64,000 bases of DNA, from IMG/VR virus record IMGVR_UViG_3300037264_006128, positions 1 to 64,000 of that record. One strand, 5' to 3'. Numbering within the stretch: the stretch's first letter is position 1; every line of letters begins with the position of its first letter. This document shows positions 2,263 to 28,880 of this stretch, piece by piece. A program made the translations under genes and the position numbers. Origin of the DNA: a virus. The notes under the pieces are model-generated. The model had not been told where the DNA came from. It searched no databases and worked only from the letters and a program-made list of their open reading frames with translations.

Positions 2263-2649
2263 AGTACGTCGCCGGGATGTCCTTACTGTCGGTCCCTTCC
2301 ATCTCCCAAGTACGTCGTTCGCATCTCCTTACTGGCAACTCTTGGCACTTCCCTCTTCGCTCGCGTCCGCGGCGAGGTCCCGGGACCTCCCAAGAACACA
2401 CTCCCAAGTACGGGGGCCGCGAGGCTTACTGAGGGGAAGCGAGGGGGAGCCGCTGGCTGTCCCAAGTACGTCGCCCGGACCTTCTTACTGAGGGAACGCG
2501 AGCGCGGCCCGAAGGGACCTCGGAAGAGGTCCTTACTGCTCGGAAGTGCGACGTCGTGCCGGCTTACTGAGGTCCCGGCCCGTTTCAGCGACGGCACCGA
2601 GAGGGGTATGGCGCAGCCCTCTAAGTACGTCGCCTTGTGCGTCTTACTG
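2263..2649 (+). repeat. array of 6-7 AGTACG-N12/13-CTTACTG sites
   Basis: copies start at 2263, 2309, 2407, 2465, 2545 and 2624, plus a half-site at 2532. Confidence 0.9.
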
Positions 2650-2654
2650 AGGGC

Positions 2655-2921
2655 TTACGCCCGCGGCTCTTCCACTAGGCACTTCTGGTGGAAGAACATC
2701 TCGCAGCCTTCGGTCAGCGGCCGGCTGCAGGCGACGCAGCGGTGAGCCTGCGCATCTTCGATCAGGCAGAGGATCGACATGGTCGCTTCCGAAAGCGCCT
2801 TCTTTGGGGCATAACCGCGGTCTAACGTGTCTGCCAAGCACGTCAGGTCCGGGTCGCTTCCGATCGTCCCGCCCAGCAGTCGCAGCATCTTGTTCACGAA
2901 CGCCTCCCGATCAACGTCCAT
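2655..2921 (-). CDS. hypothetical protein with C-terminal CxxC...HxxC Zn motif
   Basis: GGAGGTG RBS, coupled to the upstream gene. Confidence 0.65.
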   Translation of the reverse strand: MDVDREAFVNKMLRLLGGTIGSDPDLTCLADTLDRGYAPKKALSEATMSILCLIEDAQAHRCVACSRPLTEGCEMFFHQKCLVEEPRA

Positions 2922-3088
2922 CACTTCACCTCCTTCGCTTCGTCTGCCGCCGCCATCTTCGCGGCGAGGGTTTCCCAATCCCGTGCGGTGACCCGGCGGG
3001 AGCCATCCTTGTGGGTGGCGGCGAGGTGCAGTTGCTTGCCGGTGAACAGACCGCTGATGATCCAATTGCCAACACCTTCCAACATCAT
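2921..3088 (-). CDS. small hypothetical protein
   Basis: GGAGGG RBS, ATGA overlap with the upstream stop. Confidence 0.6.
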   Translation of the reverse strand: MMLEGVGNWIISGLFTGKQLHLAATHKDGSRRVTARDWETLAAKMAAADEAKEVK

Positions 3089-3423
3089 CCCTCCTTCCAA
3101 CAGTCTTTCTTGTGCCCTGCGATCAGAGCTTTCAGCGCCTTCTTCGGGTGGCGGGTGAAGCGCCAGAGCCATCCGCACTTGCTGCAACGGATCATGCTGC
3201 AACCTGCCACATGATCTACCAGGCGGGAGTTTTCCCAGTAGGGCTTGCCTTCCTGTCTGCGCAAGAGCTGCGCCTTGTTGATTGCCGGCCCGAGGGGGCG
3301 GGGCTTGGGTGGCGCCCAGCATTTGCAGGCGAGCACCGTTTCGTGATCTGGGGTTGGGGGAAGGGGCGGGAGGGCCCGCGCAGCCTTCGCCTTCTTACCT
3401 TCCGGCCACATCTCCATCATCAT
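3085..3423 (-). CDS. hypothetical Zn-finger protein
   Basis: AAGGAG RBS; CxxC and H/C residues. Confidence 0.6.
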   Translation of the reverse strand: MMMEMWPEGKKAKAARALPPLPPTPDHETVLACKCWAPPKPRPLGPAINKAQLLRRQEGKPYWENSRLVDHVAGCSMIRCSKCGWLWRFTRHPKKALKALIAGHKKDCWKEG

Positions 3424-3431
3424 CTCCTTGC

Positions 3432-3662
3432 CTACCTTCTGGCGCGGGAGAACCGGGCCACCCGCATTTCCAACTGCTCCGCGCAGATCCCCAGCAGATC
3501 CCCCTGGGAGAACACGGGTTCCCTGCCCACCACAGTTAACCCGTTGGGGGCGACCCTGATGGGGATATCCCAGCGGGCGAGCTGGGCGATCAGTTCCTGC
3601 GGAACCACCACAGGGGAAATCGCCGGTTCCACCATCGCGAGTTCAGCCATCTTCCTTGCCAT
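3432..3662 (-). CDS. hypothetical protein
   Basis: ORF in the leftward operon. Confidence 0.55.
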   Translation of the reverse strand: MARKMAELAMVEPAISPVVVPQELIAQLARWDIPIRVAPNGLTVVGREPVFSQGDLLGICAEQLEMRVARFSRARR

Positions 3663-3736
3663 CTTCAGAGCCCTTTCTTTCGATCCCCCGTGCGGGAGGC
3701 CGGCCCCATGCCAGCCCCCCGGCGGGAGGGGGTGGC

Positions 3737-4021
3737 CTATTCAGCCAGACCCTTAGCTTCGCATCCCGCGCAGAACACGCGCCCAGAGGCCCTACGGCGC
3801 CAGCATTCAGGGCATACCTTCTGAAGGTAGGCAGCCACCACTAGCGTAGCCGCGGGGAGGGGCGCGTACCCTGGATCGCGATCTTCTGGGTACAGTTTGC
3901 CGAGGGCCATCAGTTCCCTGGCGGTATCCAGCCAGATCTGGCGGGACAGTTCTTCATCTATATCCACAAGCGCATTCATACGCTTATGGATATACCCCAC
4001 GAGCTGATCCTGCACTTCCAT
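3737..4021 (-). CDS. hypothetical protein with C-terminal Zn ribbon (CPEC...CAGC)
   Basis: RBS before ATG 4021, downstream of the promoter at 4097-4125. Confidence 0.65.
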   Translation of the reverse strand: MEVQDQLVGYIHKRMNALVDIDEELSRQIWLDTARELMALGKLYPEDRDPGYAPLPAATLVVAAYLQKVCPECWRRRASGRVFCAGCEAKGLAE

Positions 4022-4096
4022 ATCGGGACCCCTTTCCTGTGCGCAAGCGTGCTTCCCGTTCCGAACGCTTGCGGTTATCAGGTTGAACATGGTGCC

Positions 4097-4125
4097 ATTC
4101 AATCACAAGTCAAAACGCTTTGCAA
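4097..4125 (-). promoter_or_regulatory. leftward sigma70 promoter
   Basis: TTGCAA-N17-TTGAAT on the minus strand. Confidence 0.6.
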
Positions 4126-4335
4126 GCGCCACGTTTTACATCTCCCTTCCATCTGCCGGCATCTCGCCAAACTTCATGTCCGCGGCGGCAGGTCCCGCGT
4201 GGGGTCTTTCCGGCGGGAGCGCGCGGCGGAAGAGGTCCCAGGACTTGGCGGCGGGAGATCGCGGGCCGAAAGGACGTCCCAAGAGGTCCCCGCCCGCGAA
4301 GCGGGCGCACCGGGAGGGCTGACCTACTACCTCCC

Positions 4336-4410
4336 AGTACGCGAACCGGCGAGGCTTACTGGAGGGTTTCCGGCGGGCCCTCCTGATACGTCGCCCGGCG
4401 CTCCTTACTG
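4336..4410 (+). repeat. two AGTACG-N13-CTTACTG sites
   Basis: 4336-4361 and 4385-4410 (GATACG variant). Confidence 0.85.
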
Positions 4411-4425
4411 TCGGGCTGGGGCGTT

Positions 4426-4803
4426 TCAGTAGTTACCAAGATCCGCCCATTCGCCCTCTCCGCTTTCGATGTCTAAGGCGCGCGCACTGTCGATCTCCCC
4501 CAGCACCCGGAAGGCATTCGCCATTTCCTGTAGGCACTCCCACGAAAGCGCCTCCGCCCCCGAGATGACGAATCCATACCAGGCGGTCCGGCCGCCGCAT
4601 TCGTTAGGCCGCATGTCCTTTGGCCCATCGGTCATCCAGTAGATCGCCAGCCCGAAGGTCGGCGTATTCATCCGCGCCAGCCAGTCCTTCACTTCCGCAC
4701 GGGCGTGGGTCACTTCCAGCTTCTCGTTCGCCTCGATCACGGTCGGGAAGGCGAAGTCGAATGGGAGTTTCCCCTGAATCGTCACCTGTTTCACGTTTGC
4801 CAT
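4426..4803 (-). CDS. hypothetical protein
   Basis: AAGGAG RBS, 125 aa. Confidence 0.75.
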   Translation of the reverse strand: MANVKQVTIQGKLPFDFAFPTVIEANEKLEVTHARAEVKDWLARMNTPTFGLAIYWMTDGPKDMRPNECGGRTAWYGFVISGAEALSWECLQEMANAFRVLGEIDSARALDIESGEGEWADLGNY

Positions 4804-4828
4804 TTCGATCTCCTTTCCGCGCGCTCGC

Positions 4829-5044
4829 TCACTCCGCTTCCGGCTCTTCCGCCGCCGGGGGCTCCGCTTCCGGCTCCGCCGCCAGCGTCACCAGCAGGAA
4901 CAGCTCCTTCGGTGGGTCCGGGAACGCGGCCTTTTCCAGGTACACCGTCTGCGCTTTGCCGTGGAACGTGGGGACACCGGGGCCGGAGAGGTGGTACTTC
5001 CAGCAATTCGGCGATTCGCCTACCAAGGTCAGCTTCCACTCCAT
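4829..5044 (-). CDS. small beta-rich phage protein with acidic tail
   Basis: GGAGGAG RBS. Confidence 0.7.
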   Translation of the reverse strand: MEWKLTLVGESPNCWKYHLSGPGVPTFHGKAQTVYLEKAAFPDPPKELFLLVTLAAEPEAEPPAAEEPEAE

Positions 5045-5110
5045 GATCAACTCCTCCTTGCCATTTGCGGGCAGGGGAAGCACATCGCCTCCCCCGCCCA
5101 GTTCTCCCGA

Positions 5111-5551
5111 TCACCCAACCGGCAGTTCGATGTCCGCCGCCGGCGTCTCAACCGGGGCCTCGATCACGGGCTTCCGCGCGCGCTCCTTCTTCGGCTTCGC
5201 CGCCTTCTCCGCGGCGGCCCGCAGGCTGTCCAGGAACGCCCTCGCCTTCGTGAAGCTCCCGAACACATTGTCCCCCACAGCCATCTTCTGCACCGCGGTC
5301 CCGTTCGGGTAGCTCTTCAGGTAGATCACGATCCCGTCCGTCGTGGCCCCCTGGGCCTTCATGCTCTCACTGGCCAGCGTCGGCTTAAAGCTTTTCGGCA
5401 GCGGTTGGATCACGTTCCGGGGGTCGTTCGCGCCCTTCCCCGCGCGCCTCTTCTTCGGGTGCGCCGCTTCGTACTCCGCCACCGCCTTCGCGTTCTGCTC
5501 GAACATGCGATTCAAGTGCTTCTCGAAGTCGATCTCTTTCGCCTTACCCAT
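5111..5551 (-). CDS. basic Lys/Ala-rich hypothetical protein
   Basis: GGAGGTG RBS. Confidence 0.75.
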   Translation of the reverse strand: MGKAKEIDFEKHLNRMFEQNAKAVAEYEAAHPKKRRAGKGANDPRNVIQPLPKSFKPTLASESMKAQGATTDGIVIYLKSYPNGTAVQKMAVGDNVFGSFTKARAFLDSLRAAAEKAAKPKKERARKPVIEAPVETPAADIELPVG

Positions 5552-5735
5552 GATTCACCTCCTTCGCCCAGGGCTGGCGCCCCAGGAACTGCTGCGCGGC
5601 CTCTTCGTACCCTGCCCCACGCAGGTTCCGATAGGCCGTCCGTTGCACACTCTGCAACTTGCGGATCGCCCGTTGATGTTCGTAGCGGTCCGCAACTTCC
5701 ATCTCTTCCCGTTCCCATCTGCGGGGGACCTTCAT
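5544..5735 (-). CDS. hypothetical protein
   Basis: ATGA overlap with the upstream stop. Confidence 0.55.
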   Translation of the reverse strand: MKVPRRWEREEMEVADRYEHQRAIRKLQSVQRTAYRNLRGAGYEEAAQQFLGRQPWAKEVNHG

Positions 5736-6022
5736 TCCGTACCCCCACCATCCACACACGTGGGGCAGTACACTTGGTCTGCTTCGCGCTCTTCCCCGCA
5801 TTCGATGCAGCACCCACCACCGAAGTATTCCAGATGATGGGCGAGGATATCGCACATCTCGTTCATCCCTGCCTGCCATGTGGCGTGCAGGACCCCTTCC
5901 AGATCTGCCCCGGCGGCAAGAGCCTTCTGGGCATGCGCGATGCTTCTGATTGGATGTGGGGTCTGCCAGTACATTCCCACCACCTTTTCTACGAACGCGG
6001 CGACCTTCTGTTCGGTTTCCAT
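5732..6022 (-). CDS. hypothetical protein with C-terminal Zn ribbon (CIEC...CPTC)
   Basis: first gene after the promoter at 6177-6205. Confidence 0.65.
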   Translation of the reverse strand: METEQKVAAFVEKVVGMYWQTPHPIRSIAHAQKALAAGADLEGVLHATWQAGMNEMCDILAHHLEYFGGGCCIECGEEREADQVYCPTCVDGGGTE

Positions 6023-6176
6023 CTTCAAGACCCTTTCAGTTGCCAGGTTGTGGGCAGGGGAAGCCAAGAGCCCCCCTGCCAGTTGCCCATCAGAGCCCCA
6101 TTGCCTACCTGGTGCAAACCTAACGGTACATAGCGAGCCCCCTTTCTGTTTTCGTGATTCGGTTTCATCCTGCGTG

Positions 6177-6205
6177 ATTCTACCGCAAGCCGAAACGCTT
6201 TGCAA
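6177..6205 (-). promoter_or_regulatory. strong leftward sigma70 promoter
   Basis: TTGCAA-N17-TAGAAT on the minus strand. Confidence 0.8.
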
Positions 6206-6436
6206 GCGCCAAACCTGGCACCTCCCCCGGCGCCTCTGGGTGGGTCGCCGGGTTCCCTGTCTCCGGGATCCCTCCCGTCCTGGGCGAGGTCCCAGGAGGC
6301 TGGCGGGCACGGCCCCGGGCCCCAACCTCCCCAACCCTTCCAGGCAGCGGCCACCGGTGGGGAGGTCTCCGGCCGATCGGGGAGGGAAAGGCGGCAAACC
6401 GGCGAGGGGAAGAAGAGGCCCACCGCCGCCCCTCCC

Positions 6437-6621
6437 AGTACGCGGAACCCCCAGGCTTACTGTCAGGATCTGGCCCCCGCTTCATCATCTCCCCCCGAAG
6501 GGGGGAGATACACACGTGGCCCCTCGCGCCCCCGATTTCGGGAGGGCTTCGAACGAATCAGGGAGAGCATCAAGAGCGCCCACCCGGGCCCCTCCCGTAC
6601 GTCGCCTGCAGAACCTTACTG
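6437..6621 (+). repeat. two AGTACG-N13-CTTACTG sites
   Basis: 6437-6462 and 6596-6621 (CGTACG variant); degenerate copy at 7013-7038. Confidence 0.85.
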
Positions 6622-6632
6622 GTCGGTTTCCC

Positions 6633-7280
6633 AACTTCCCCGCGAAGATCCCCAGGATAACAATTAGGCCTCCCGAACTTCCCCCAGATGTTTCGCTGGG
6701 GGAACTGAACCTCCCCCTGAACCTCCCCCCGAACTTCCCCACAACAATCTTCCTGGTAACCTCCCGCTACCCCATTTCAGATAACTGCGATCTTCCTGGG
6801 GAAGCAAAACGCCCCTCCCGAACTTACCATAAAGATTATCTGGGGGAAGCAAGCCCTCTCGATTCATTCCCCACGAAGATGAGCTGTGGGAAGCGAAAAA
6901 CGACCCAAAATTCCCCACAATGATCCCAATTATCCGGTTTTGCTCCCTAGAAATGTAGCTGTGGGAGTTCTTCAGCGAAATCAATAGGATGGCGAGATCG
7001 GACGCGCTCCTAAATCCGACCTCCCCAGAGCGTTACTGAGCGATCATGGCGAGGGCGAGACCTCCCTCCCGCCCCTTTCCGCCCTTCTGGCCCGCGCCCC
7101 TCTTTTCCCCCATAACCTTATCTCTCTTCACATTTTCCCACTTATCCACACCCCATTTCCTCCCTTTGGCAGCTACTAGGACCTTTTTTTTCTTTTTCCC
7201 CTATAGACTTACAATTTCGCGGAGAATTTCGGGGGAAGGGCGGGGACAGGACTAAGAAGACCGATATTACCAAGACACAT
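6633..7280. other. candidate replication origin (iteron-like GAACYTCCCC repeats plus AT-/pyrimidine-rich tract)
   Basis: AAC(C/T)TCCCC at 6633, 6676, 6708, 6720, 6732; inverted GGGAAGC copies near 6798, 6844, 6888; non-coding and downstream of the replication genes. Confidence 0.5.
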
Positions 7281-7656
7281 ATTCAGCTACCCCAGACCGG
7301 AAAAGAAGCAAAGGCACAGAACGCGCGCGTAGGGGATCTGCGGGCGTGACAGTACGGGCGCGAGGGGGGGCGATTTCGTTCAGAAATCTTTATTGCTGGG
7401 AGTTTGAAGCCGGGGGGCTGGGGTTCTTGCAAGTTCGAGACTCGCGCTTGTGCCCGGAACGGGCTGCCCCCCGGCGTGGGGAGTTCACCGGTGGTCGATC
7501 GGCGGAGAACGGCCGCGGGGTTGGATCTTCGACTGCGCTTGACCCGTTTTGTGCCCCTCACGCATTTCCAGGCGATTTCCCGCGTTTTCGTGACCTACTG
7601 GCTACGGTGGTAGCCCCTGAGCGTGAAACAGGGCTTAAACGGGCTGGTTCGCGTTC

Positions 7657-8211
7657 CTACCGCCATTCCGGTCTGTACCCACGGCCTGTTCTTTCCTCTT
7701 CGTGCCGTTCCGCTTGGATTTGCTTCTTCACGAGGGCGGCTTGCCGTTTCAGTTTGCAGGGTCCCCACAGGATGTCGATCCGGGCGGTTGATCGGTGGGG
7801 GGAGGCGGAGAGTTCCAGGCGGCGGGGGATCAGGGCGGAGCAGTTACCGGCTTCTTTCGCTTCGCAGCGGGGGAGGCCGGGGCAGAAGTCCTTGCAGTTC
7901 CACATTGCCCTACCGGCGGCGGCGAGGGTGGCAAGGTTTTCCAGCACATCCTGGTCGTCCACCATGTCCCACCCCACATCTGGCTGCAGCTGGTGCATTC
8001 GGCGCAGCACGGTTTCCGCCAGGTCCCGTTCCGGGGCCAGGAGGGTTTCCCACTGATCCGGGGATGGGACTGTGCGTGACGTGCGGTTCAGTACGTGCGT
8101 GTACTGGTCGGGTTTCTGTTCTGGCTGGAGGTTGGGGGTTTCGTCCCCGGGTTCGCGCAGGGGATACTCTTCCCGGTCCTGCGGTTCGGAGTGATCAAGC
8201 CACGGCGTCAT
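7657..8211 (-). CDS. hypothetical replication-module protein, Cys-containing
   Basis: ATGA-coupled to the helicase loader-like gene. Confidence 0.7.
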   Translation of the reverse strand: MTPWLDHSEPQDREEYPLREPGDETPNLQPEQKPDQYTHVLNRTSRTVPSPDQWETLLAPERDLAETVLRRMHQLQPDVGWDMVDDQDVLENLATLAAAGRAMWNCKDFCPGLPRCEAKEAGNCSALIPRRLELSASPHRSTARIDILWGPCKLKRQAALVKKQIQAERHEEERTGRGYRPEWR

Positions 8212-8786
8212 CGTGCTCCACCTTTCCGGCCATCGTTGGCCATCCGGCCCTCTGGGCCATTCCGGCCTTCAGGGGCCTTGTTGAACCACTCGATCAGTTT
8301 CGTTGCCCGCGATTGGTCGATCAGCGGCAGCCCATCCGCATCGTGGGCGATCAGGTCTTCCGTTGCCTTGCGGGCGTTCGCCTCGTACGCCCTGCAGAAC
8401 TGCGAGTACAGGGTTTGTTCGTTCCGCGGGTCGCAGGTACAGAACGTATCCCACCCAAGTTGGGCGATGGTCTTGTTCAGGGCCTTGTTGCGGAAGTGGG
8501 GCGTTTGGTGCCTACCCAGCTCCCGCACATCTTCCTGCACGATCCCCCAGGCCTCCGCCGCCGCCAGGCTGGTGATCCCGGTCGCCATCACTTCGCGCCT
8601 GATGTCCGCCGGCTTCGGCCGCCGCGTTTGGGTCCGCATCCACGTGCCGGTTGCTGCGACCGTGGCTTTGTAGTCCAGGTCGTCGATCAGCCGGGCGTAG
8701 ATCCCCAGTGTGGCTTCGGACCACATCGGGACGGGATCCCAGGCGGCGATAGCGAGCCAGATTCTTTCCGCTTCGTTCAGTGTCAT
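8208..8786 (-). CDS. replicative helicase loader/inhibitor (SPP1 G39P-like)
   Basis: L.DLDY...AA...W...PKPADIR and AAEAWG.V...LGW..FC motifs; follows the initiator. Confidence 0.65.
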   Translation of the reverse strand: MTLNEAERIWLAIAAWDPVPMWSEATLGIYARLIDDLDYKATVAATGTWMRTQTRRPKPADIRREVMATGITSLAAAEAWGIVQEDVRELGRHQTPHFRNKALNKTIAQLGWDTFCTCDPRNEQTLYSQFCRAYEANARKATEDLIAHDADGLPLIDQSRATKLIEWFNKAPEGRNGPEGRMANDGRKGGAR

Positions 8787-9298
8787 TCTTCCCCCCAGAC
8801 TTCTTGGCAGTCGGCGTTCGGGTCTTCTTCCGCCGGCACAGATACCGTTGCCATCTTCCCCACAGGTGCGAACAGGAACTCGTTCTGTGCGATGCGCGCT
8901 TCCTCCTCGTCCGCTTGGCGGTCCAACACGTTCTGGATCATCCGCATCGTTTGCTCCGCGGCCGGGACGTAGCCGTTACCGCTGCGCTTCTTTGCGATCA
9001 CATCGCTCTGCACGGCTCTCCGTTTCCATTCCACCGTTGTGCGGACCCAGTTCTTCCACACCCCCCCATCCCAGTCCCGCCGTGGGTCTTTGAACTCGTG
9101 ATCCTTCATCGACTCGAAAGCCTCTTGCGCTTCTTGCTTGGTTAGGCCGCGGTCTATCGCGAACCGCAGCATCGTTGTGCTCAACGCCAACTCCCTGGGG
9201 GCCCGCTTCCCCTTCGTCCATCCACCACCAGGCTTGATGCGCGAGAAGTATTCGGCCTGCCTCCGTTCCGCTTTCAGTTTTGCTGGTGTTGGGAACAA
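8783..9298 (-). CDS. C-terminal half of replication initiator (DnaT-like ssDNA-binding domain)
   Basis: FESMKDH...RRDWDGGVWKNWVR motif; same frame as 9395-9994 and open up to the TAG at 9395. Confidence 0.65.
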   Translation of the reverse strand: MFPTPAKLKAERRQAEYFSRIKPGGGWTKGKRAPRELALSTTMLRFAIDRGLTKQEAQEAFESMKDHEFKDPRRDWDGGVWKNWVRTTVEWKRRAVQSDVIAKKRSGNGYVPAAEQTMRMIQNVLDRQADEEEARIAQNEFLFAPVGKMATVSVPAEEDPNADCQEVWGEE

Positions 9299-9394
9299 CT
9301 CCGGATTTCCGGGGGTATCGTCGCGTGCGGATCTGGAACCGCTACGCGCAGATCCAGTACCGCGACCTTTTGCAGACCCGCCCCCTTTTCCCCC

Positions 9395-9994
9395 CTAACC
9401 CCCCATATCCCCCACCCATATTATTTCTTTTTCTTCTCTTTCTTTTATAGCTTCTTCCTCAGAAGAAGAAGACTCTTCTACCCTACGCACGGGCGCGGGC
9501 GTAACAAGAGACGCGGGCGCGTATACACGCGATGAAACCCCCGGAAAAGGCGAGCCGTTTTTTGGGATTTCCTGCGCAGGGATTTCTGGGGGAGAAGCGC
9601 GGAGGGAAAGAGCGTCAGGTGAAGAGTTGCCGGCCGGGTTCAGGGGTGAGTTCGATGCCCACCAGGCCCCGACGGAGTTGCCGGCGGGCTGGCTGCGGCG
9701 GAGGATCCAGCCCCAGCCGACGATCCGGTAGCTGCCCAGAAACTCATCCACCACCGCCACAAACCCGTCTTCCACCAACCGGGCAAGAAGCGTCTTCGCA
9801 TCGAACAGGTCCTTCGGGAAGCACCGCATCTTGATCTCCGCCGCATCCCCGATGAACTGGCCCACTTCGCTGCACTCCGCCAACACAGCCAGGTAGAACG
9901 ACCTGGCGGGCGCCCCAGTTTGCTGTTCGATCTCCCACAGCCGGTGGCTGGAGAGCGCTGCGCGAATCACATCCGGGTGGAGCGGTTGAACCAT
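9395..9994 (-). CDS. N-terminal half of phage replication initiator (wHTH plus low-complexity linker)
   Basis: ARSFYLAVLAECSEVGQF...LARLVEDGFV wHTH-like region, then a Ser/Pro/Glu-rich linker. Confidence 0.65.
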   Translation of the reverse strand: MVQPLHPDVIRAALSSHRLWEIEQQTGAPARSFYLAVLAECSEVGQFIGDAAEIKMRCFPKDLFDAKTLLARLVEDGFVAVVDEFLGSYRIVGWGWILRRSQPAGNSVGAWWASNSPLNPAGNSSPDALSLRASPPEIPAQEIPKNGSPFPGVSSRVYAPASLVTPAPVRRVEESSSSEEEAIKEREEKEIIWVGDMGG

Positions 9995-10202
9995 GCCGTC
10001 CCCCAACTGCCACTGCCGTTCAACATCACGAATCTCCTTTCTTTTCAGTGCGTTGCCGAGCCCTTTTCCGCCATCTGCCGAAATCAAGCGGAACGCTTCA
10101 ACTACCACCAACAGCCCCCGGTTGCAATGTCGTTCGCAGGGCCTCAGCCGGCCGGGCGAGGCGCGAGGGTACGAGGGCCGCCGGCTGTGCAAGCTGGCGC
10201 GC

Positions 10203-10290: not shown

Positions 10291-10641
10291 ATGTTATGTA
10301 TAACTTGTGGAACCCCATTCACGCAGCGTCCCAAGCAACCGGGGTTGCGCGGGCAATGCTATGATTGCGGTCGCCTGGAAGAAAGGCGCCGGGGGGTCCG
10401 CCGAACCCTTGGGCTGCAAGGTGGGGAAGGGATTAGCAAGAGTGCGAACATAAGCATCTGGCGCAACCCAACGGCCAGACAGGCGAAGTTGGTGAAGGCT
10501 ATTAACAAGGCTCCCTTCCAGGCTAATTCCGGCATGTGGCTGGGTGGGGGTCGCGGTGGCAATGAAGAAGAAAAACCGCTCGCCGATTTGTTTCAAACGT
10601 TGGGAAAGATGGCGAGCCGAACAAAAGGAGGGAAGGCATGA
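10291..10641 (+). CDS. hypothetical Zn-ribbon protein
   Basis: CITC...CYDC; ATGA-coupled to the next gene. Confidence 0.6.
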   Translation: MLCITCGTPFTQRPKQPGLRGQCYDCGRLEERRRGVRRTLGLQGGEGISKSANISIWRNPTARQAKLVKAINKAPFQANSGMWLGGGRGGNEEEKPLADLFQTLGKMASRTKGGKA

Positions 10642-11120
10642 AGATCAGCGATGTGGCAGGCTTCGGGGACGCGGCAAAGGCACTGCGGCGGGAGCAGCGC
10701 AAGGCCAAGCGGCGGGAGCGGCGGCAATTGCTGGAATGGCACGCGGATCTGCGGAAGGAGGGGCGCGTGCGGGAGCAGCGGGCGCGGGAGGCCGGCATGA
10801 AAAGGGCGGTAGACACCGCCCTAGGACTGTTCGTGCCGGAAGGGGCAGAGGCCGATGCGGGGCTGCTGGTGCGGGACCGATCGCACATCACGGTGAACGA
10901 GAGGGGGAAGCCGGTTACGTTCGAAAGGGTGGTGATCCGCTGCGCGCAGGTGGAAGGACTGCTGGCGCAGTTCAAGCCGGCGACCACCCGCAAGCTGGCG
11001 AACGTGGTGATCCCGCGCGACGCAATCCCGAAAGGGTGGCTGGACATGCGGGCCCTGACCTACACCAGCCAACTGCTGCGGGAACGTGGGGCGAGTAACT
11101 TCAAAGTGTCGATCGCGTGA
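10638..11120 (+). CDS. hypothetical protein
   Basis: GGAGGG RBS. Confidence 0.7.
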   Translation: MKISDVAGFGDAAKALRREQRKAKRRERRQLLEWHADLRKEGRVREQRAREAGMKRAVDTALGLFVPEGAEADAGLLVRDRSHITVNERGKPVTFERVVIRCAQVEGLLAQFKPATTRKLANVVIPRDAIPKGWLDMRALTYTSQLLRERGASNFKVSIA

Positions 11121-11142
11121 AGGGATCGGAAGGAGGACAACG

Positions 11143-11403
11143 ATGTGGGTGCAATGGGAATGTGGATGCGACGGGGTGATCCTGGCGAATGGGGACACGT
11201 TGGTGCTGTATCCGTGTGACCGGCAAGACGATGCCCCGCCATTCGCCCTCGGCGTGCGTTGTTGTGGCGGAATATCCGCCAAGGCGCACAGAGAGCTTTC
11301 AGACAACGAACGCACCGCTCTGTTGCATGCGATCAACGCCGTACTCAGCCGCGGGAGTCGCATGGCCAACTGGCCGCACACGAACAAGGAGGAGAAAGCA
11401 TGA
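11143..11403 (+). CDS. hypothetical protein
   Basis: AGGAGG RBS. Confidence 0.7.
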   Translation: MWVQWECGCDGVILANGDTLVLYPCDRQDDAPPFALGVRCCGGISAKAHRELSDNERTALLHAINAVLSRGSRMANWPHTNKEEKA

Positions 11404-11876
11404 CGCAGCAATTCATCGAACGCGAAGGGACCGGTACCGTGGTGTACTGGGGGGACCTTCCCCCACCGGATCAACAAGCCCTGATCGTCCTGCTACGTCT
11501 TGACGAAAACGGCGACGCCCCGGCGTTGATCGGATACTGGCCGGATCGCGACAGCGTCCACCAGAGGGCAGAATGGGACGAGTGCTACGAGCCGCTGATT
11601 CCGTTCACGCTGGAAATCCTGCGGGAAGACCAGTCGGAAGGGGTCTTCCGCCGCTTGATGCTGGTGCCGGAGTGGCCGCCGATTCCGTGCGACCCAGATA
11701 CGGGTAAGCCGCGGGAGCGCTCCGCCCGGGAACTGCGCCGCCAGTACCTGGCAACCTCGCCACGGCTTCTGGGCGCCGCGACCCCGATCACGCTGATGCC
11801 TGGGGTGGACCCGGATAAACTGGGGGAAGAATGCGACAAGTGGGACCGGCATCTGAACGAGCCGGAAGCGGAGTGA
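11400..11876 (+). CDS. hypothetical protein
   Basis: GGAGGAG RBS, ATGA overlap. Confidence 0.7.
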   Translation: MTQQFIEREGTGTVVYWGDLPPPDQQALIVLLRLDENGDAPALIGYWPDRDSVHQRAEWDECYEPLIPFTLEILREDQSEGVFRRLMLVPEWPPIPCDPDTGKPRERSARELRRQYLATSPRLLGAATPITLMPGVDPDKLGEECDKWDRHLNEPEAE

Positions 11877-11909
11877 GTGCGGAGCCAAGGAGCGCCCGAA
11901 GAAGTAGCC

Positions 11910-11935
11910 AGTACGTCGCGTACCGAACCTTACTG
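11910..11935 (+). repeat. AGTACG-N13-CTTACTG site
   Basis: intergenic, ends 27 nt before ATG 11963. Confidence 0.85.
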
Positions 11936-11962: not shown

Positions 11963-12196
11963 ATGGGGAACATCATCATGCGGGACAAGCTGTTGGATTT
12001 CCTTGTGGCAGTGCAGGCAGACGAGGATTTCGGCGGCCGACCCAAGGTGGGCGGATCGATCACCTCGTTCATGGGTGCCGGGGATGAATTCTTGATCGGG
12101 GACGATGCCTACTACCTGAAGGACGGGGAACCGCACAATCTGGCCGCGGAGCTGAACGCGACCGAGCGTGGCTTGGAAATCGTGGTGATCGGCTGA
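11963..12196 (+). CDS. hypothetical protein
   Basis: AGGAGG RBS. Confidence 0.7.
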   Translation: MGNIIMRDKLLDFLVAVQADEDFGGRPKVGGSITSFMGAGDEFLIGDDAYYLKDGEPHNLAAELNATERGLEIVVIG

Positions 12197-15315: not shown

Positions 15316-15365
15316 CCGCCGAAGGGGAACTGAGTGAGCGCGGAGCAAAGGAGCGCAGGGAAGGC

Positions 15366-15391
15366 AGTACGACAGCCACACAACCTTACTG
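15366..15391 (+). repeat. AGTACG-N13-CTTACTG site
   Basis: intergenic, directly before the RBS of 15411. Confidence 0.85.
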
Positions 15392-15410: not shown

Positions 15411-15836
15411 ATGGGATACTGCATGAGACAACGGGACTGCCGGTTCTTCGTCAAGGCGGAGAATAAACCAGCTGCCCTTGCCGCGATCAAAGCGCTGGCC
15501 GGCAAGGAGACAATCCACGACGGAGTGAACCAACAGAACCACCACTTCTCATGGGTTACCACAAGCAAATTCCTGGAAGCCGACTCGCTAGAAGAAGCGA
15601 TGGGGGCATGGCGGTGGACTGCATACGAAGACCCAAATGGGAACATCGACAGCATCGCCTTCGAAGGAGAAAAGGCGGGCGATGACACCGTTCTGTTTGA
15701 AGCTATCGCCCCGTTCGTAGAGCACGGATCGTACATTATGATGGAAGGCGAGGACGGGTACATCTGGCGGTGGATGTTCACGGATGGCGCGGTAGAGGAA
15801 GAAGAAGGGCCCATCACCTTCCCCCACGATGCATAG
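15411..15836 (+). CDS. conserved phage hypothetical protein
   Basis: GEK.GDD..LF.AIAPFVE.GSYI...GEDG..WRW motif; GGAGG RBS. Confidence 0.8.
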   Translation: MGYCMRQRDCRFFVKAENKPAALAAIKALAGKETIHDGVNQQNHHFSWVTTSKFLEADSLEEAMGAWRWTAYEDPNGNIDSIAFEGEKAGDDTVLFEAIAPFVEHGSYIMMEGEDGYIWRWMFTDGAVEEEEGPITFPHDA

Positions 15837-15860
15837 TACGACACCTACGAAGCCTTACCG
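15835..15860 (+). repeat. AGTACG-N13-CTTACCG site
   Basis: overlaps the stop codon of 15411-15836. Confidence 0.8.
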
Positions 15861-18018: not shown

Positions 18019-18870
18019 ATGAAGCACGTGCGGGTTCCCGGAACGGAACGGATGGCCCGGGGGGTCTCCTTCCGCAGGCTGCGCCGGCTGCACGGGAAAG
18101 AGGTGGCACAGATCGCAGAAGAGGCGATGCGCTGCGCCAAGAAACGAGGGCACAAGCCGGGGATGTTGATGGACTGTGGGGGGACGGGTTTAAGGCTGAA
18201 GGCGCGGTGCATGAAAGAGGGCTGCGGGTGTGCCGTGATGGTGGCGCCGGACAGGGCAGCCGTGGACGGTGCTGGATTTGGGGGCAGCGCGATAGAGAAC
18301 CGCTGCCCAACAGCCAACCCGATAGGGTTAAGGAGGAACGAGATGAGCGACGGAAAGAAGAAGCGAACGAAAAAGGCAGAGGCGGGGATAGGCACCGAAA
18401 CCGTGCCGGTGGAGGTGCAGGTGGAGCAACCCGCCCCAAAACGGAAGCGGAAGGCGGCAGAGCCGCAGGCGGAAGCCACGAAGGTGCAGAAGCCCTCCCC
18501 GCCGCCATTCAAGCCGCGCAAGCCGAAGGTGGACATCGAGCCGCCGGTGGAAGCCACGAAGGACCTGAAGCAGGTGGTGGCACGCGCCAAGAAGGCGAAG
18601 GCGGAGGCGGTGGAACGTCAGAAGGTGAAGACGGAAGAGGCGAAGCAACGCCGCCACAAGCACGACATCGTTCCGTTCAAGGGCAAGCTGCCGGTGGAGG
18701 AGAACCCAAGCCTGAAGTTCCTGGGGAAGGTGGGGAATGACCTGTATGTGTACGAGAAGACCTTCAAGAGCGGAACGACATGGAACTACTACTTCACCCT
18801 GGACGGGAAGAGGTTCGAGTCCGTGCCGGCGGCCGAGCGCTACTTGGAAGAGCTTGCCAAGGCTGCCTGA
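18019..18870 (+). CDS. Lys/Pro/Glu-rich protein with C-terminal MBD/AP2-like domain; second in-frame start at 18343
   Basis: RBS before both ATG 18019 and ATG 18343; C-terminal KSG..YYFTLDGKRFESVPAAERYL. Confidence 0.7.
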   Translation: MKHVRVPGTERMARGVSFRRLRRLHGKEVAQIAEEAMRCAKKRGHKPGMLMDCGGTGLRLKARCMKEGCGCAVMVAPDRAAVDGAGFGGSAIENRCPTANPIGLRRNEMSDGKKKRTKKAEAGIGTETVPVEVQVEQPAPKRKRKAAEPQAEATKVQKPSPPPFKPRKPKVDIEPPVEATKDLKQVVARAKKAKAEAVERQKVKTEEAKQRRHKHDIVPFKGKLPVEENPSLKFLGKVGNDLYVYEKTFKSGTTWNYYFTLDGKRFESVPAAERYLEELAKAA

Positions 18871-20496: not shown

Positions 20497-20498
20497 GC

Positions 20499-20726
20499 AT
20501 GAAGGAACGGATTTTTTGCGAGTGGTGCGAAGGTGAAGAGATGCTACCAGCCACCGTCGTGCTGACGGTGACCGACTTAGAAGGCCTCCTGTTCGAACGG
20601 TACCAGTTATGCGTGGCGTGCCTAGCTAGTATTTCGAAGACCCTTTACTTCGGTCTTCCGGGAGAAATGAGCCAGAGCGCGAAGCAAGGGAGCAGGGGTT
20701 GTAACGAAGGGAGTAAATCTTACTGA
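20499..20726 (+). CDS. hypothetical protein
   Basis: CEWC...CVAC. Confidence 0.55.
   Translation: MKERIFCEWCEGEEMLPATVVLTVTDLEGLLFERYQLCVACLASISKTLYFGLPGEMSQSAKQGSRGCNEGSKSY
20701..20725 (+). repeat. variant site GTAACG-N12-CTTACTG
   Basis: shares about 45 bp of context with the copy at 25866. Confidence 0.75.
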
Positions 20727-21120: not shown

Positions 21121-21155
21121 CGGCGCGGAGCGAGAACGCTCCCACAGAAGCGCGC

Positions 21156-21184
21156 TTGCAAAGCGTGCGCGTTTGTGCGATGAT
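21156..21184 (+). promoter_or_regulatory. sigma70 promoter for the AAA module
   Basis: TTGCAA-N17-GATGAT with TG extension; CGCTTGCAAAGCGT identical to the promoters at 4125 and 6205. Confidence 0.65.
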
Positions 21185-21227: not shown

Positions 21228-22751
21228 ATGAAGGAGCTGATCGAACAGCTGAAACAGGCAAGAAAGGTGGCGACCCCACTGGTGGTGGTGGGGACGTATG
21301 ACCCGGAAGTTACGTTGACCACCCTGCGTACGTTGCTGAACGGAAAGAGCCCGCTGTTGACGTGGGATTGCGTTGACGGCGTACGGGAAAGGAACGAGCT
21401 GGGGCAGGCGGCAATGAGTGCTGTAAACCCAGAGCAGTGCTTCAAACCTACGGGGATGCTGGTGCAGGCAAGGGAACTACCGGCGAAGACCGTTTTGGCA
21501 ATGGTTCACCCGCATCGGTTCTTCGATGACCCCACGGTGGTAGAGGCGATTCGGCAGCTACGCGACCCGTTCGCTACGAACACGCGCATGCTGGTGCTGC
21601 TGTGCCCGGAGGCATCGGTGCCGCAGGAGTTGCGGCAATCGGTGGTGACGCTGAACGAACGGCTGCCTACAAAGGAGCAGCTGAGTTCCGTGGCGCAGGT
21701 GGTGTACAACGACCTGCGGGAGAAGAACCCGGCAACGCCAGCCCCTACCGAACAGGACCTGACGGCCGCGGCGCAAGCCATGCAGGGGTTCGGCAAGTTC
21801 ATGGCTAGCCAGGTCGGCTACCTGGGGATCAACTTCGATACCGCACGGGTGGACATCGAAGCGATGTGGGGCGTGAAGCGTTCGTTGATTGCGCAGGTGC
21901 CGGGGCTGAGCGCGGTGGAACCGGGCCTAACGTTTGCGGACATCGGCGGTTGCGGGGCGGCGAAGGAATACATGCTGCGCCGCGCTGCCGGAAAGAGGCG
22001 CCCAGCCCTGATCGTGATGATTGACGAGATCGAGAAGCAGATGGCGGGGAGCGGTTCCGGTGGGGATTCCAGTGGTGTGAGCACCTACATCAAGGGCGCG
22101 ATTCTGCAAGCGTGGCAGGACTACGAGTGGGATGGGATGTTGGAGCCGGGGCCGCCGGGGTGCAGCAAGAGCCACTTCATCAAGTGCTGCGCGGCGGAAC
22201 TGAAAGTGCCTGTTTTCAAGATGGACCTTGGCGCGACCAAGGGCCAGTACGTGGGCGTATCCGAACAGAACATCAACGAGGCCTTGCGCACGTTGCACGC
22301 CATCGGCGGGAAGGACGTGTTCTTCATGGCCACGTGCAACGACATGCAGGTGGTGACCGCCGATCTGCGACGCCGGTTCCGTTCTGGCGTATGGTACTTC
22401 CCACTTCCGGGGGGCGACGAGTTGGACGCGATCTGGGGCATTCACCTTACCAAACGCGGATTGCCGCTGGATATGCCGCGGCCGGACGATACGAACTACA
22501 CCGGCAGCGACGTGGAAACGGTGTGCGAACGGGCGTGGGAGCTGGAGATCGACTTGAAAGAAGCGGCCGAGAAGTACCTGACGCCAGTGTTCAAGACCAA
22601 CCGGGAAAGCATCCTAGCGTTGGAGAAGTTGGCGGCAGGGCGATTCCTGGACGCGAACACCGGAGGGCTGTACAACCCAAGCGCAGGTAGCCGCAGACAG
22701 GTCAGGCGGGTTTCCTCCGGGCGTGGGTTGGGAGCCGTGGCGAATGGGTAG
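21228..22751 (+). CDS. Ycf46-like AAA+ ATPase with permuted Walker B/Walker A order
   Basis: IVMIDEIEK precedes GPPGCSKS; then VGVSEQN, ATCND (sensor 1) and LRRRF (Arg finger). Confidence 0.85.
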   Translation: MKELIEQLKQARKVATPLVVVGTYDPEVTLTTLRTLLNGKSPLLTWDCVDGVRERNELGQAAMSAVNPEQCFKPTGMLVQARELPAKTVLAMVHPHRFFDDPTVVEAIRQLRDPFATNTRMLVLLCPEASVPQELRQSVVTLNERLPTKEQLSSVAQVVYNDLREKNPATPAPTEQDLTAAAQAMQGFGKFMASQVGYLGINFDTARVDIEAMWGVKRSLIAQVPGLSAVEPGLTFADIGGCGAAKEYMLRRAAGKRRPALIVMIDEIEKQMAGSGSGGDSSGVSTYIKGAILQAWQDYEWDGMLEPGPPGCSKSHFIKCCAAELKVPVFKMDLGATKGQYVGVSEQNINEALRTLHAIGGKDVFFMATCNDMQVVTADLRRRFRSGVWYFPLPGGDELDAIWGIHLTKRGLPLDMPRPDDTNYTGSDVETVCERAWELEIDLKEAAEKYLTPVFKTNRESILALEKLAAGRFLDANTGGLYNPSAGSRRQVRRVSSGRGLGAVANG

Positions 22752-25813: not shown

Positions 25814-25865
25814 GAAGGCGGAAGGGGAGGTGGAACAAGGAGCGCTCGCCAAGGGAGCGGGGGAT

Positions 25866-25890
25866 ATAACGAAGGGGACAAAGCTTACTG
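25866..25890 (+). repeat. variant site ATAACG-N12-CTTACTG
   Basis: intergenic, directly before the RBS of 25908. Confidence 0.75.
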
Positions 25891-25907
25891 AGCAGAAAGG
25901 AGGCTAA

Positions 25908-26573: not shown

Positions 26574-26620
26574 GAGGAGCAACCAGATTCTGTTAGACGA
26601 AGAGAAAGGAGAACGAAAAG

Positions 26621-26902
26621 ATGCCGAATGACAAGACAGCAACGATGCAGTGCCCGCACTGCGAGGGAAGCGGGATTGCCCCGCTGCCGAAACCGCTCCT
26701 ACAAACCGTGCAGGCGCTGGGAAGCGAATCGCTGGGCATGACGGAGATGATGCACAGGATGAAGATCACCAGCCAGTTGGCGAACTACAGGCTCTCCCGC
26801 CTACTGAAGTTGGGGGTGCTCCAGAAGGTCGCCGTTGACGGAAGACCCAAGTACCGGCTGGCCGTGCGCCGGCCGAAGAGCAAACCAAGAAAGGTGGCGT
26901 AG
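26621..26902 (+). CDS. winged-HTH regulator with N-terminal CxxC
   Basis: MTEMMHRMKITSQLANYRLSRLLKLGVL. Confidence 0.65.
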   Translation: MPNDKTATMQCPHCEGSGIAPLPKPLLQTVQALGSESLGMTEMMHRMKITSQLANYRLSRLLKLGVLQKVAVDGRPKYRLAVRRPKSKPRKVA

Positions 26903-26904
26903 GT

Positions 26905-28218
26905 ATGGCGAACGGAAAACCGACGCAGCAAGACGATCCGCAGAACAAGAAACTGGCGACCGTGCCAGAAGGGGCAGCTGAATTCTCCCTGACGGTTCGC
27001 GGCAACCAGCCGGACCAGATGGTGGTACGGCCCCACAACCTGGACGAACTGCTCGCGAACGCGAAGATGATCGCCTTTTCGAATCTCGTGCCGGAAGCAT
27101 TCAAGGGCAAGCCGGATGATGTCGCCGTGGCTATCCAGATGGGAATGGAAGTGGGATTGCACCCCATGCAGGCAATGCAGTCCATCGCCGTGATCCGTGG
27201 CCGACCGTGCATCTGGGGGGAAGCCGTGAAGGCTTTGGTGCTCTCCAGCGGCCTGTGTGAATACTGGATTGATTCCCCGCCGGATCAGATCCGCGAAACG
27301 GGGGTCGCCACCTGCCGCACGAAACGGCGCGGCTGGCCGGAGGAGTCCGTTTACAGCTTTTCCGTTGACGACGCCAAGATCGCCGGCCTGTGGGGGAAAG
27401 AGGGCCCATGGAAGGCATACCCTGCCCGGATGCTACTCGCCCGCGCACGCGGCTTCCTGGCAAAGGACACGTATCCAGACGTTCTGCGGGGCATGGCGGT
27501 ACGGGAAGAGGTGGATGATCTGCCGGAAGCGGGGCAGTTCGCTGCCGCGGAGGTGATCATCCCGTTGCAGGAGCCGCGGCGGAAGAGTGCGGCCGAAGCC
27601 TCCCGGGAAACCGTCACGGTTCAGCGCGTGGTTCCCGAAGAAGCGATCAATGCGGAGTTTCACGTGAAACACGCCCAGGCCGCCGAAGCGGAGGAAGCCC
27701 CACCGCAGAAGAAGACGGTGCCGCCGAAGAAGCAACCTGAACCGAAGCCCGCCCTGAAAGTTCAGGAGGATCCGCCGCCACCGCCACCAGACGACGACCC
27801 TCAAGGCGAAGACCAGCCGCCATTTGACGCGCCAACCACAACCAAGGCCTCCGTGGAAAAGGCGCAGGCGGCAGAGGCGGAGCTGGGCGAACAGCTGAAC
27901 CTCCTGAAGGGCGCAGCAAAGCCAGCCGCACAACCCGTGGCGCAGGAGGCCAAACGTGCGCCTGCGAAAGCAACCGCCTGGGAGCTGACTACGACGGTGC
28001 AATACGCAGGGAAGCAGATCAAGACCGGCGGGATCAGTGCCATCACCCTGCTAAAAGTGCAGCGCGGGGCAGAGCGGTTCGATGGCATTCACTACCAGGG
28101 CGCGGCGACGGAGGCCCTGGCAACGATGTTCCCGGACGACACCCCGCCGGGGTTTGAATACCTGGGCGAAGACGCAGGGCGGGAATTCTTGCAGTACATG
28201 AAAGAGAACGAGAAGTAG
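26905..28218 (+). CDS. recT: RecT/Redbeta-like single-strand annealing protein
   Basis: GKP.DV.VAIQMG.EVGL.PMQA.Q.IAVI.GRP...GPW..YP.RML.ARA. Confidence 0.85.
   Translation: MANGKPTQQDDPQNKKLATVPEGAAEFSLTVRGNQPDQMVVRPHNLDELLANAKMIAFSNLVPEAFKGKPDDVAVAIQMGMEVGLHPMQAMQSIAVIRGRPCIWGEAVKALVLSSGLCEYWIDSPPDQIRETGVATCRTKRRGWPEESVYSFSVDDAKIAGLWGKEGPWKAYPARMLLARARGFLAKDTYPDVLRGMAVREEVDDLPEAGQFAAAEVIIPLQEPRRKSAAEASRETVTVQRVVPEEAINAEFHVKHAQAAEAEEAPPQKKTVPPKKQPEPKPALKVQEDPPPPPPDDDPQGEDQPPFDAPTTTKASVEKAQAAEAELGEQLNLLKGAAKPAAQPVAQEAKRAPAKATAWELTTTVQYAGKQIKTGGISAITLLKVQRGAERFDGIHYQGAATEALATMFPDDTPPGFEYLGEDAGREFLQYMKENEK
27656..27671. promoter_or_regulatory. parS-like centromere site
   Basis: AGTTTCACGTGAAACA, 15/16 match to TGTTTCACGTGAAACA. 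Confidence 0.75.
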
Positions 28219-28234
28219 CGGTGGGGGTGGGATC

Positions 28235-28834
28235 ATGGAACGGAGCGAGTACCCAAGTGTCACAAAGATCATACGGGGCATGGGCCTCTATAAGGCCATG
28301 CCTACTGGTGGCGTTGCCACGGGGAACATGCAGCGCGGAATGGAGCGCGGAACGCTAGCCCACTCCGTCTGCCAACTGTGGGATCAGGAAGACCTTGACG
28401 AAAGCTCCGTTGACCCCCGCCTTGACCCATACCTGGAAGGATTCAAGCTGTGGAAGCGGGATTACGAGACGGTGCCGATCTGGTGGGAAATCCCCATGTT
28501 CGACGACACGTTGCAAGCAAAGGGGCGGCCGGACACGGGGCAGTGGGTACGTGGGTACAGAACGTTGGTGGACCTGAAAACAGGGGATGGTGGGGCGGAC
28601 CCGGCGCATCCGATCCAGGGGGCGGCGTACAGGCGCATGGTGATGCTCCCGGAAAACCTCTCCGTAAGCCGTATGGTGCAAACAGCGGACATTTACTTCG
28701 GGAATCTCTACCTACTGTCCAACGGGAAGTACCAATACTTCGAATGCTCCCAGGAGGATATTCTTGGGGCAGAACAGAAGTGGCTCGCCGCCGTGCTTCT
28801 CTACCACTTCCGGCTCCAGCACGGCCGCCTCTAA
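28235..28834 (+). CDS. PD-(D/E)XK exonuclease (partner of RecT)
   Basis: PSVT.I...RGT..H...GRPD...VDLKTG...Q..AY. Confidence 0.8.
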   Translation: MERSEYPSVTKIIRGMGLYKAMPTGGVATGNMQRGMERGTLAHSVCQLWDQEDLDESSVDPRLDPYLEGFKLWKRDYETVPIWWEIPMFDDTLQAKGRPDTGQWVRGYRTLVDLKTGDGGADPAHPIQGAAYRRMVMLPENLSVSRMVQTADIYFGNLYLLSNGKYQYFECSQEDILGAEQKWLAAVLLYHFRLQHGRL

Positions 28835-28855
28835 CCCCACCCCTCCTAAGCCCGC

Positions 28856-28880
28856 AGTACGCCAGCTGCCAGGCTTACTG
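28856..28880 (+). repeat. AGTACG-N12-CTTACTG site (rightmost copy)
   Basis: intergenic. Confidence 0.85.

Follow-up and report, generated by a model that had tools for sequence, protein, structure and literature searches.

We analyzed a 64,000-nucleotide stretch of viral DNA (positions 1 to 64,000 of IMG/VR record IMGVR_UViG_3300037264_006128), hereafter the window. It belongs to a single contig of 96,451 bp, of which it forms the first 64 kb and which has a G+C content of 60%. The subject of the analysis is a bipartite DNA motif, AGTACG-N12/13-CTTACTG, whose strong copies range from position 2263 to position 28880. Genes were called by codon usage, and the calls were checked by the G+C patterns at the first, second and third codon positions (GC1/2/3). 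A leftward gene (184-525) and a rightward one (1122/1376-1972) are followed by a leftward block of genes, block A (2655-10108), and then by a rightward block, block B (~10291-30539), which encodes RadC, RecT, exonuclease-like proteins and an AAA+ cassette. The next block (30632-96434) is again leftward and contains the lysis, tail, head and packaging genes and a sugar-modification operon, followed by about 50 small genes. The phage is of the siphovirus type.

The exact motif occurs ten times, always on the plus strand, against 0.00 matches expected from 100 shuffles, and the copies at 2545, 4385, 6596 and 15835 carry one or two mismatches. When we built a two-block weight matrix from these 14 copies and ran it over both strands of the whole genome, the 14 strong copies scored 28.8-40.4, and the best score among 20 Markov-shuffled genomes was 15.1. 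All 14 lie on the plus strand (two-sided p ~1e-4) and all 14 are intergenic, so that matches were neither spread over both strands nor found inside coding sequences. Two variants, at 20701 and 25866, keep CTTACTGAG together with the left block TGTAAC or TATAAC, respectively, and resemble each other over about 60 bp. The 14 strong copies and these two variants make up the roughly 16 copies in one orientation that a first-pass annotation of this DNA had counted, and its placement of them between genes or at gene ends also agrees with our scan, since the variant at 20701 overlaps a gene end. Two further copies, at 2514-2538 and 7013-7038, are weak. No intergenic 7-mer of the genome is more strongly enriched than the right block CTTACTG by itself (15 occurrences between genes; 20 on the plus strand versus 4 on the minus strand). 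Between 30 and 96 kb the weight-matrix scan found no copy on the plus strand, in line with the earlier remark that the late operon holds no full copy. The sole near-copy on the minus strand (33809-33834, score 20.6) encodes KYGITQRFL of a GH108-type endolysin; we rejected it as a real site, and because these endolysin codons are conserved, it is best read as a chance match.

The two conserved blocks are held at a fixed spacing of 12 or 13 bp around a variable spacer and form a dyad that is stronger than had been claimed. The half-site cAGTAcG and the reverse complement of its partner, CAGTAaG, are identical at six of seven positions, and their centres are about 19.5-20.5 bp apart, corresponding to two helical turns. 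The variants at 20701 and 25866 also retain the GTAA...TTAC symmetry. The single asymmetric position (CG versus CT) has the same sense in 14/14 copies. When the copies were folded with 8-nt flanks on either strand, most of them folded no better than shuffled sequence, the exceptions being a few left-hand copies with extra CCTCC/GGAGG flanks, and no tRNA or Rfam match was found within 1-31 kb. An RNA-structure reading was rejected on the basis of the non-significant folding z-scores on both strands and these negative tRNA and Rfam results; since the copies fold no better than shuffled sequence, the element is taken to act as DNA rather than RNA. All copies are on the plus strand across the leftward and the rightward blocks, indicating that the orientation of the motif is independent of gene direction, and the codon-usage gene calls and GC3 patterns confirmed the earlier statement that it does not flip with the gene blocks. 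Such strict polarity suggests that the motif functions directionally. The E. coli-type LexA box is TACTG-N10-CAGTA, and the motif arms CAGTA...TACTG share its pentamers in everted order, a resemblance that is probably a coincidence.

Six copies, including the two variants, lie in block B, where they are co-oriented with the recombination and replication genes behind them and stand 27, 19, 93, 34, 20 and 71 nt ahead of the ATGs at 11963, 15411, 15954, 20760, 25911 and 28952, respectively. GGAGG-type ribosome sites are present in five of these six genes. The copy at 11910-11935 is exact and precedes the Shine-Dalgarno sequence AAGGAGG, and that at 15366-15391 is also exact. The copy at 15835-15860 has the right block CTTACCG and starts within the stop codon of gene 15411-15836. 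The variant at 20701-20725 (TGTAAC...CTTACTG) overlaps the end of gene 20499-20726, and it is followed by the variant at 25866-25890 (TATAAC...CTTACTG) and by an exact copy with the 12-bp spacer at 28856-28880. At 15366 and 25866 only a Shine-Dalgarno sequence fits between the motif and the ATG, and at 11910, 15366 and 25866 the gap between the motif and the Shine-Dalgarno sequence is too short for another promoter. Any transcription start serving the genes behind 15366 and 25866 must therefore be located a few bases from CTTACT, which places the motif where a core promoter is expected.

Four of the six block B sites also share an upstream box, GAGYGC..AAGGAGCGC. It reads GAGTGAGYGCGGAGC-AAGGAGCGC on the plus strand at 11871-11895 and again at 15332-15356, and related boxes are present at 20675-20693 and 25840-25859. 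Terminator-like hairpins at about 18.9 and 25.55 kb partition block B. The first rightward genes (~10291-11876) have no copy of the motif, which fits early genes that precede a factor-dependent class. The first gene of this block (10291-10641, plus strand) is a probable unlisted gene for a 116-residue protein with a CxxC-N16-CxxC pattern, a basic tail and no Pfam hit.

The ten remaining copies occupy three large intergenic regions of block A, and these regions proved to be paralogous cassettes, each at the 3' end of the preceding leftward unit. The first-pass annotation had not tied the ten wrong-way copies to these cassettes. In each cassette a leftward promoter box (2056, 4120 or 6200) is followed by plus-strand GAGGTCC(C) boxes and then by motif copies that are directed away from the promoter, toward the 3' end of the next leftward unit, and the motif copies start 207, 216 and 237 bp from the promoter boxes at 2056, 4120 and 6200, respectively. 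The GAGGTCC(C) boxes, at 2526, 2569, 4232, 4283 and 6286, stand between the leftward promoter and the motif copies. Cassette 1 contains six copies and one weak copy, cassette 2 two copies, and cassette 3 two copies and one weak copy. The common orientation of the left copies is thus explained by the cassette design, in which they are arranged back to back with the early promoter. A directional, promoter-like element would be expected to show the observed agreement in orientation between these left copies and the copies of block B. The earlier idea of a signal oriented to the genome itself therefore held in part: the motif is fixed while host-type promoter hexamers flip with the genes, as described below, but the shared orientation of the left copies follows from the cassettes.

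Cassette 1 carries the array. Exact copies are located at 2263-2288 (13-bp spacer, score 37.7), 2309-2334 (13-bp spacer, score 33.1), 2407-2431 (12-bp spacer, score 36.5) and 2465-2490 (13-bp spacer, score 40.4). The weak copy at 2514-2538 (score 8.4) has only the right half CTTACTG, its left part being a GGACCTC/GAGGTCC palindrome. The fifth copy (2545-2569, 12-bp spacer, score 29.4) has the left block AGTGCG with one mismatch, and the sixth (2624-2649, 13-bp spacer) is exact and ends 5 nt from the stop codon of the leftward gene 2655-2921. The promoter region of this cassette (2040-2065, minus strand) contains two copies of the TGCAAGCGC box, which is also found in cassettes 2 and 3, and its -10 element is not clear-cut. 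A perfect 15-bp hairpin at 1999-2034, between gene 1376-1972 and the array, is a candidate two-way terminator. Three tandem 16-bp plus-strand repeats, GCWGCGCAGGAA-N4, are found at 2189-2242 just upstream of the first array copy, and they have an inverted partner at 2735-2758. A GAGGTCCC/GGGACCTC palindrome is located at 2374-2389.

In cassette 2 an exact copy (4336-4361, score 33.8) is followed by a copy with the left block GATACG (4385-4410), 15 nt from the stop codon of the leftward gene 4426-4803. Cassette 3 has an exact copy at 6437-6462 (score 30.8) and a copy with the left block CGTACG at 6596-6621 that is directed into origin-like repeats. These repeats, (C/A)TTCCCC(A/G)C..GAT on the plus strand, fill positions 6630-6931 downstream of the two copies and are followed by an AT-rich stretch at about 7140-7300, just ahead of which the weak copy at 7013-7038 (three mismatches, score 16.5) is directed into it. 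The repeats and the AT-rich stretch together are likely a replication origin. The candidate initiator-like genes at 7657-10108 adjoin this region. That the motif itself might be a set of replication iterons was considered and rejected, as a different repeat family fills the origin-like region.

A second kind of promoter-like sequence is also found in this genome. TTGACA-like/TAnnnT pairs precede leftward units at 702, 4125, 6205, 64.6 kb, 68.7 kb and 91.3 kb, and a similar TTGACA-like pair was read by eye at 96.2 kb. The sigma70-like promoter of cassette 3 (6177-6205, minus strand, TTGCAA-17-TAGAAT) lies inside a conserved 50-nt box, GCGCTTGCAAAGCG, and that of cassette 2 (4097-4125, minus strand, TTGCAA-17-TTGAAT) is placed directly ahead of the ATG at 4090. 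The GCGCTTGCAAAGCG box holds the -35 element at 4125 and 6205 on the minus strand, and its single plus-strand occurrence, at 21154, coincides with a rightward host-type promoter (21156-21184, TTGCAA-17-GATGAT) ahead of the AAA+ gene at 21228. These host-type promoters follow gene direction, but the AGTACG motif does not, and we therefore regard the host-type pairs as a second, separate class. The comparison of hexamers and the existence of this separate class led us to reject an ordinary host promoter as the identity of the motif, as far as the sequence alone can tell; the first-pass annotation had likewise contrasted the motif with ordinary promoters.

Based on these observations, we tentatively suggest that the motif is a phage-specific promoter, probably of the middle class, which requires a phage factor, and that its sense copies drive genes while its antisense copies fire convergently. 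The motif would be the core of a promoter class distinct from the host sigma70 type, and it would probably be read by host RNA polymerase after redirection through a phage protein made early, which would be a sigma-like factor or else an activator that binds at about -30. In block B (11.9-30.5 kb), the copies would start the transcripts of the recombination and replication genes, and transcription would begin a few bases past CTTACT, giving short leaders that hold only a Shine-Dalgarno sequence. In the leftward early block, the motif promoters would stand back to back with leftward host-type promoters in the three duplicated cassettes and direct transcription rightward into the preceding early unit, entering it at its 3' end. 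The resulting antisense RNA and head-on interference may help to shut off the early units and to stop read-through, and the cassette 3 copies would send transcription across the origin-like repeats. What the sequence shows is the copies, their strand, their placement relative to genes and the separate host-type class; we infer the promoter activity, its timing, the factor and the antisense role. A promoter class weighed best among the readings because it explains the position of the block B copies, their polarity and the separate host-type class, and the promoter option raised in the first-pass annotation fits all six block B copies.

Several points weigh against this interpretation. First, ten of the 16 copies point against coding genes, and neither an open reading frame nor a known RNA follows them. 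Second, a near-perfect 7-bp dyad would not be expected of a sigma-type promoter and is more in keeping with a dimeric binder, and the distance between the blocks, with centres about 20 bp apart, is short for a -35/-10 geometry. Third, since the distance of 19-93 nt to the ATG is not fixed, intergenic placement alone could explain the rightward sites. Fourth, no relatives that could show the motif to be conserved were found in any collection searched. Finally, no family match to a sigma factor or an RNA polymerase was obtained in Pfam and PHROGs searches of 54+40+34 proteins, so the phage sigma factor or RNA polymerase that had been proposed was not recognized among the early proteins.

We then looked at which proteins could serve as the factor. 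None of the binders named earlier, the winged-helix protein 26621-26902, the MBD-like protein 18343-18870 and the basic proteins at 1376 and 5111, could be linked to the motif. A protein of 284 residues with tandem helix-turn-helix (HTH) domains is encoded outside the window, in the early region (genome 89467-90321, minus strand), downstream of a TTGACT-17-TAGTGT promoter and a small winged-helix-like gene. Its second HTH has the VTRERIRQ signature of sigma region 4.2 (Pfam Sigma70_r4, E 1.6e-6), and the protein shows weak similarity to RpoD residues 419-535, regions 3-4 (PDB RpoD, E 0.0045). We count this similarity among the points in favor of a promoter class. The structure model of the protein is confident only for the HTH domains, two in number, and for two long helices. 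All matches from the fold search were weak, none having an E-value <=0.001, and they were to tethered two-HTH DNA binders and to sigma regions 3-4. The family is small and weak, and one homologue has, as judged by eye, a T5orf172/GIY-YIG-like N-terminus. A bipartite, asymmetric site of 26 bp is one that a protein with two tethered HTH domains could recognize. It also counts against the proposed promoter class that the protein encoded here has no match to region 2 and that the model does not cover its C-terminal half. The protein, which nothing links to the motif, is no more than a lead. A 1259-residue protein that has no family match is encoded among the tail genes and has no PDB match. Searches with Pfam found no CI-like repressor, integrase, recombinase or Par family, although a family missing from the Pfam matches may still be encoded.

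That a phage should have a promoter or regulatory motif of its own is nothing new in itself. T4 middle promoters consist of a MotA box at -30 and, after 12 +/- 1 bp, a -10 element, and T4 oriF/oriG combine a middle promoter with an unwinding element behind it. The motif described here is similar in having one box 12-13 bp upstream of a second and, in the arrangement that we propose, in depending on an early-made factor and in firing into an origin-like region. It differs in its downstream block CTTACT, which is no sigma70 -10 element, and in its dyad, since the T4 boxes are not known to be dyads; moreover, homologues of MotA and AsiA were not detected. All 16 species of phiKMV-like phages examined, LUZ19 and 15 others, keep a phage-specific promoter that lies antisense in the early region, and the conserved non-host promoter motifs of YuA and 14-1 are silent unless phage factors are present (PMC10914365). 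LUZ19 has its own single-subunit RNA polymerase, a contiguous 20-bp motif and one antisense copy (PMC10914365). The present motif resembles P001 of LUZ19/phiKMV and the YuA and 14-1 motifs as a non-host sequence ahead of middle or late units for which a phage factor is needed, as is proposed here, and, like P001 with its conserved antisense copy, it has at least one early-region copy directed against the genes, for which a role in stopping read-through has been proposed. Unlike in LUZ19, no polymerase gene was found here, the motif is bipartite and nearly palindromic, 10 of 16 copies are antisense, and 6-7 copies form an array. What is unusual about the motif is its fixed orientation in the genome, the antisense majority, the duplicated early-promoter cassettes and the 6-7-copy array.

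It is also conceivable, at a low level of probability, that a phage protein, either dimeric or bipartite with two HTHs, occupies the 26-bp sites as operators or roadblocks. It would block or modulate transcription between genes, as stoperators or a global regulator do, and in the cassettes it may also loop to the leftward promoters about 220 bp away. The inverted half-sites, two helical turns apart and still recognizable as GTAA...TTAC in the variants, are as expected for such a protein, and so is the regular distance of 207-237 bp that separates the cassette copies from the leftward promoter box. The phage has several genes for small proteins of basic or HTH type, namely 26621-26902, 10291-10641 and, at 89.5 kb, that of the tandem-HTH protein, whose fold resembles, by weak matches, tethered bipartite binders such as Tc3, paired and POU domains. 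A symmetric dimer, however, gives no reason for the constant CG/CT asymmetry or for the orientation shared by 14/14 copies, and if the sites were operators only, most of block B would be left without a recognizable promoter. The phi29 p4 sites, CTTTTT-N15-AAAATG, number four in one region between the divergent early promoters A2b/A2c and the late promoter A3. They are comparable in that their half-sites are inverted, stand two helical turns apart and belong to a control region flanked by early and later promoters arranged back to back, whereas no p4 homologue is present here and the site itself takes the core-promoter position. The stoperators of mycobacteriophage L5 and cluster A, which measure 13 bp, are oriented with transcription and form part of a temperate immunity system. 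Like the present copies, they are numerous asymmetric sites in short intergenic gaps throughout the genome, but here the orientation is fixed to the genome instead of following transcription and no lysogeny genes were found, and an immunity system is unlikely since repressor, integrase and partition genes were not found.

We also consider it doubtful, to a like degree, that the motif is a polar DNA device at the 3' ends of early operons and not, or not only, a promoter. Its copies would then be head-on barriers and antisense sources, or else strand-specific nicking or processing sites read by a bipartite two-HTH protein. In the first form, stacks of promoter-bound complexes would cut off and silence early transcription, the genome seeming to lack ordinary terminators.

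A further explanation, which we hold to be distinctly unlikely, is that the copies are sites where a phage nicking enzyme leaves one-strand interruptions in virion DNA, as in T5, phiKMV-like and tf/LUZ24-like phages. Comparison with the published nick systems strengthened this explanation. The phage encodes a NUMOD4-HNH_3-HTH endonuclease (62448-63011), and this is the architecture of the I-HmuI nicking family. The gene, however, looks like that of an ordinary free-standing homing endonuclease. In phage tf, 14/14 nick sites (TACT/RTGMC) are on the top strand while the genes form two convergent blocks, and 11/14 sites are in the left half (PMC3517423). The present copies, about 14-16 in number, are likewise intergenic, on one strand and crowded to one side of the 96.5-kb genome, and the right block contains TACT|G. 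The nick motif of LUZ19, CGAC-N5-CCTA/CTCCGG, is bipartite, the only detectable intergenic motif and unrelated to transcript abundance (PMC3604761). More generally, the nick sites of tf, phiKMV-like phages and T5 lie on one strand whatever the gene direction, number about 4-14 and are unevenly distributed, and the phiKMV consensus is bipartite (PMC3517423, PMC3604761). On the other hand, the known consensus sequences differ from the motif and are not dyads. Six to seven sites within 390 bp have no precedent among the known nick systems compared, for which no arrays are known, and the surroundings of the motif, with upstream boxes common to several sites and with the cassette layout, have a regulatory look. 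If the copies were nick sites, the phage would represent a fourth, unrelated group for a phenomenon whose function is still unknown.

Entry promoters, with the array near the first-entering end and RNA polymerase pulling the DNA in as from T7 A1-A3, are the least credible explanation, and a very unlikely one: six to seven tandem copies directed into the genome, with further copies at widening intervals, would suit this mechanism of DNA uptake, which the first-pass annotation had offered, but the contig start looks arbitrary, with leftward genes at both ends and no terminal repeat, the remaining 66 kb beyond 30 kb have no copy, and a motif that is not of the host promoter type would be inactive before phage proteins are made unless its factor were injected with the DNA.

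The contig start is probably an arbitrary point because leftward genes abut both ends (184-525 and 96243-96434) and no terminal repeat is present in the contig. Searches for relatives were negative at several levels. Megablast and blastn with 1-12 kb and 1.9-7.7 kb as queries gave no nucleotide match to GenBank phages, tblastn with the tube and RecT proteins gave only distant matches below 50% identity, and single-protein scans of IMG/VR found no relative. A profile of the AAA+ protein recovered 80 IMG/VR loci, which have only a 4-5 gene cassette in common and none of which carries the motif. Among 5.8 billion proteins, the best outside homologue of the AAA+ protein shared 40% identity with it, and identities for the portal reached 29-33%. 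Exact-pattern scans of IMG/VR and metagenome contigs gave at most a single match per contig, and the contigs with such a match had neither a second relaxed copy nor protein similarity to the phage. One sequence with seven CTTACTG on one strand was rejected, as it is a coding repeat and not a motif array. A literature search on the motif returned nothing relevant. The phage is thus an orphan without known relatives, and the motif sequence is new.

The remaining assignments concern the late region. The tape measure (55279-59904), the tail tube (60744-61988) and a J-like central fibre (47827-51951) were recognized. Also recognized were a portal protein that carries a DUF4055 domain, the nuclease domain of the terminase and the GH108 endolysin; the GH108/PG_binding_3 type of this enzyme suggests that the phage infects a Gram-negative bacterium. 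The Terminase_6C nuclease domain is in a 346-residue open reading frame (genome 70217-72773 region), separated by a 409-bp gap from an upstream 368-residue frame without a Pfam match, and the large terminase may be split or interrupted. Two rightward genes sit within the leftward late operon, namely 62448-63011, assigned by eye to the NUMOD4-HNH_3-HTH endonuclease, and genome 64880-65449, which encodes an HTH protein with a homing-endonuclease-like look. A protein picked by eye, 38066-38551 (minus strand), is a stand-alone response-regulator receiver domain (Pfam Response_reg, E 2.4e-11).

Returning to the phage-specific promoter that we tentatively favor, if it is true, one private promoter would turn on the DNA-metabolism genes and at the same time silence three early operons by convergent transcription from duplicated cassettes. 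The phage would then show antisense control within a lytic programme in a compact form that lends itself to testing, and the motif offers a way to trace the redirecting factor even though the phage has no relatives.

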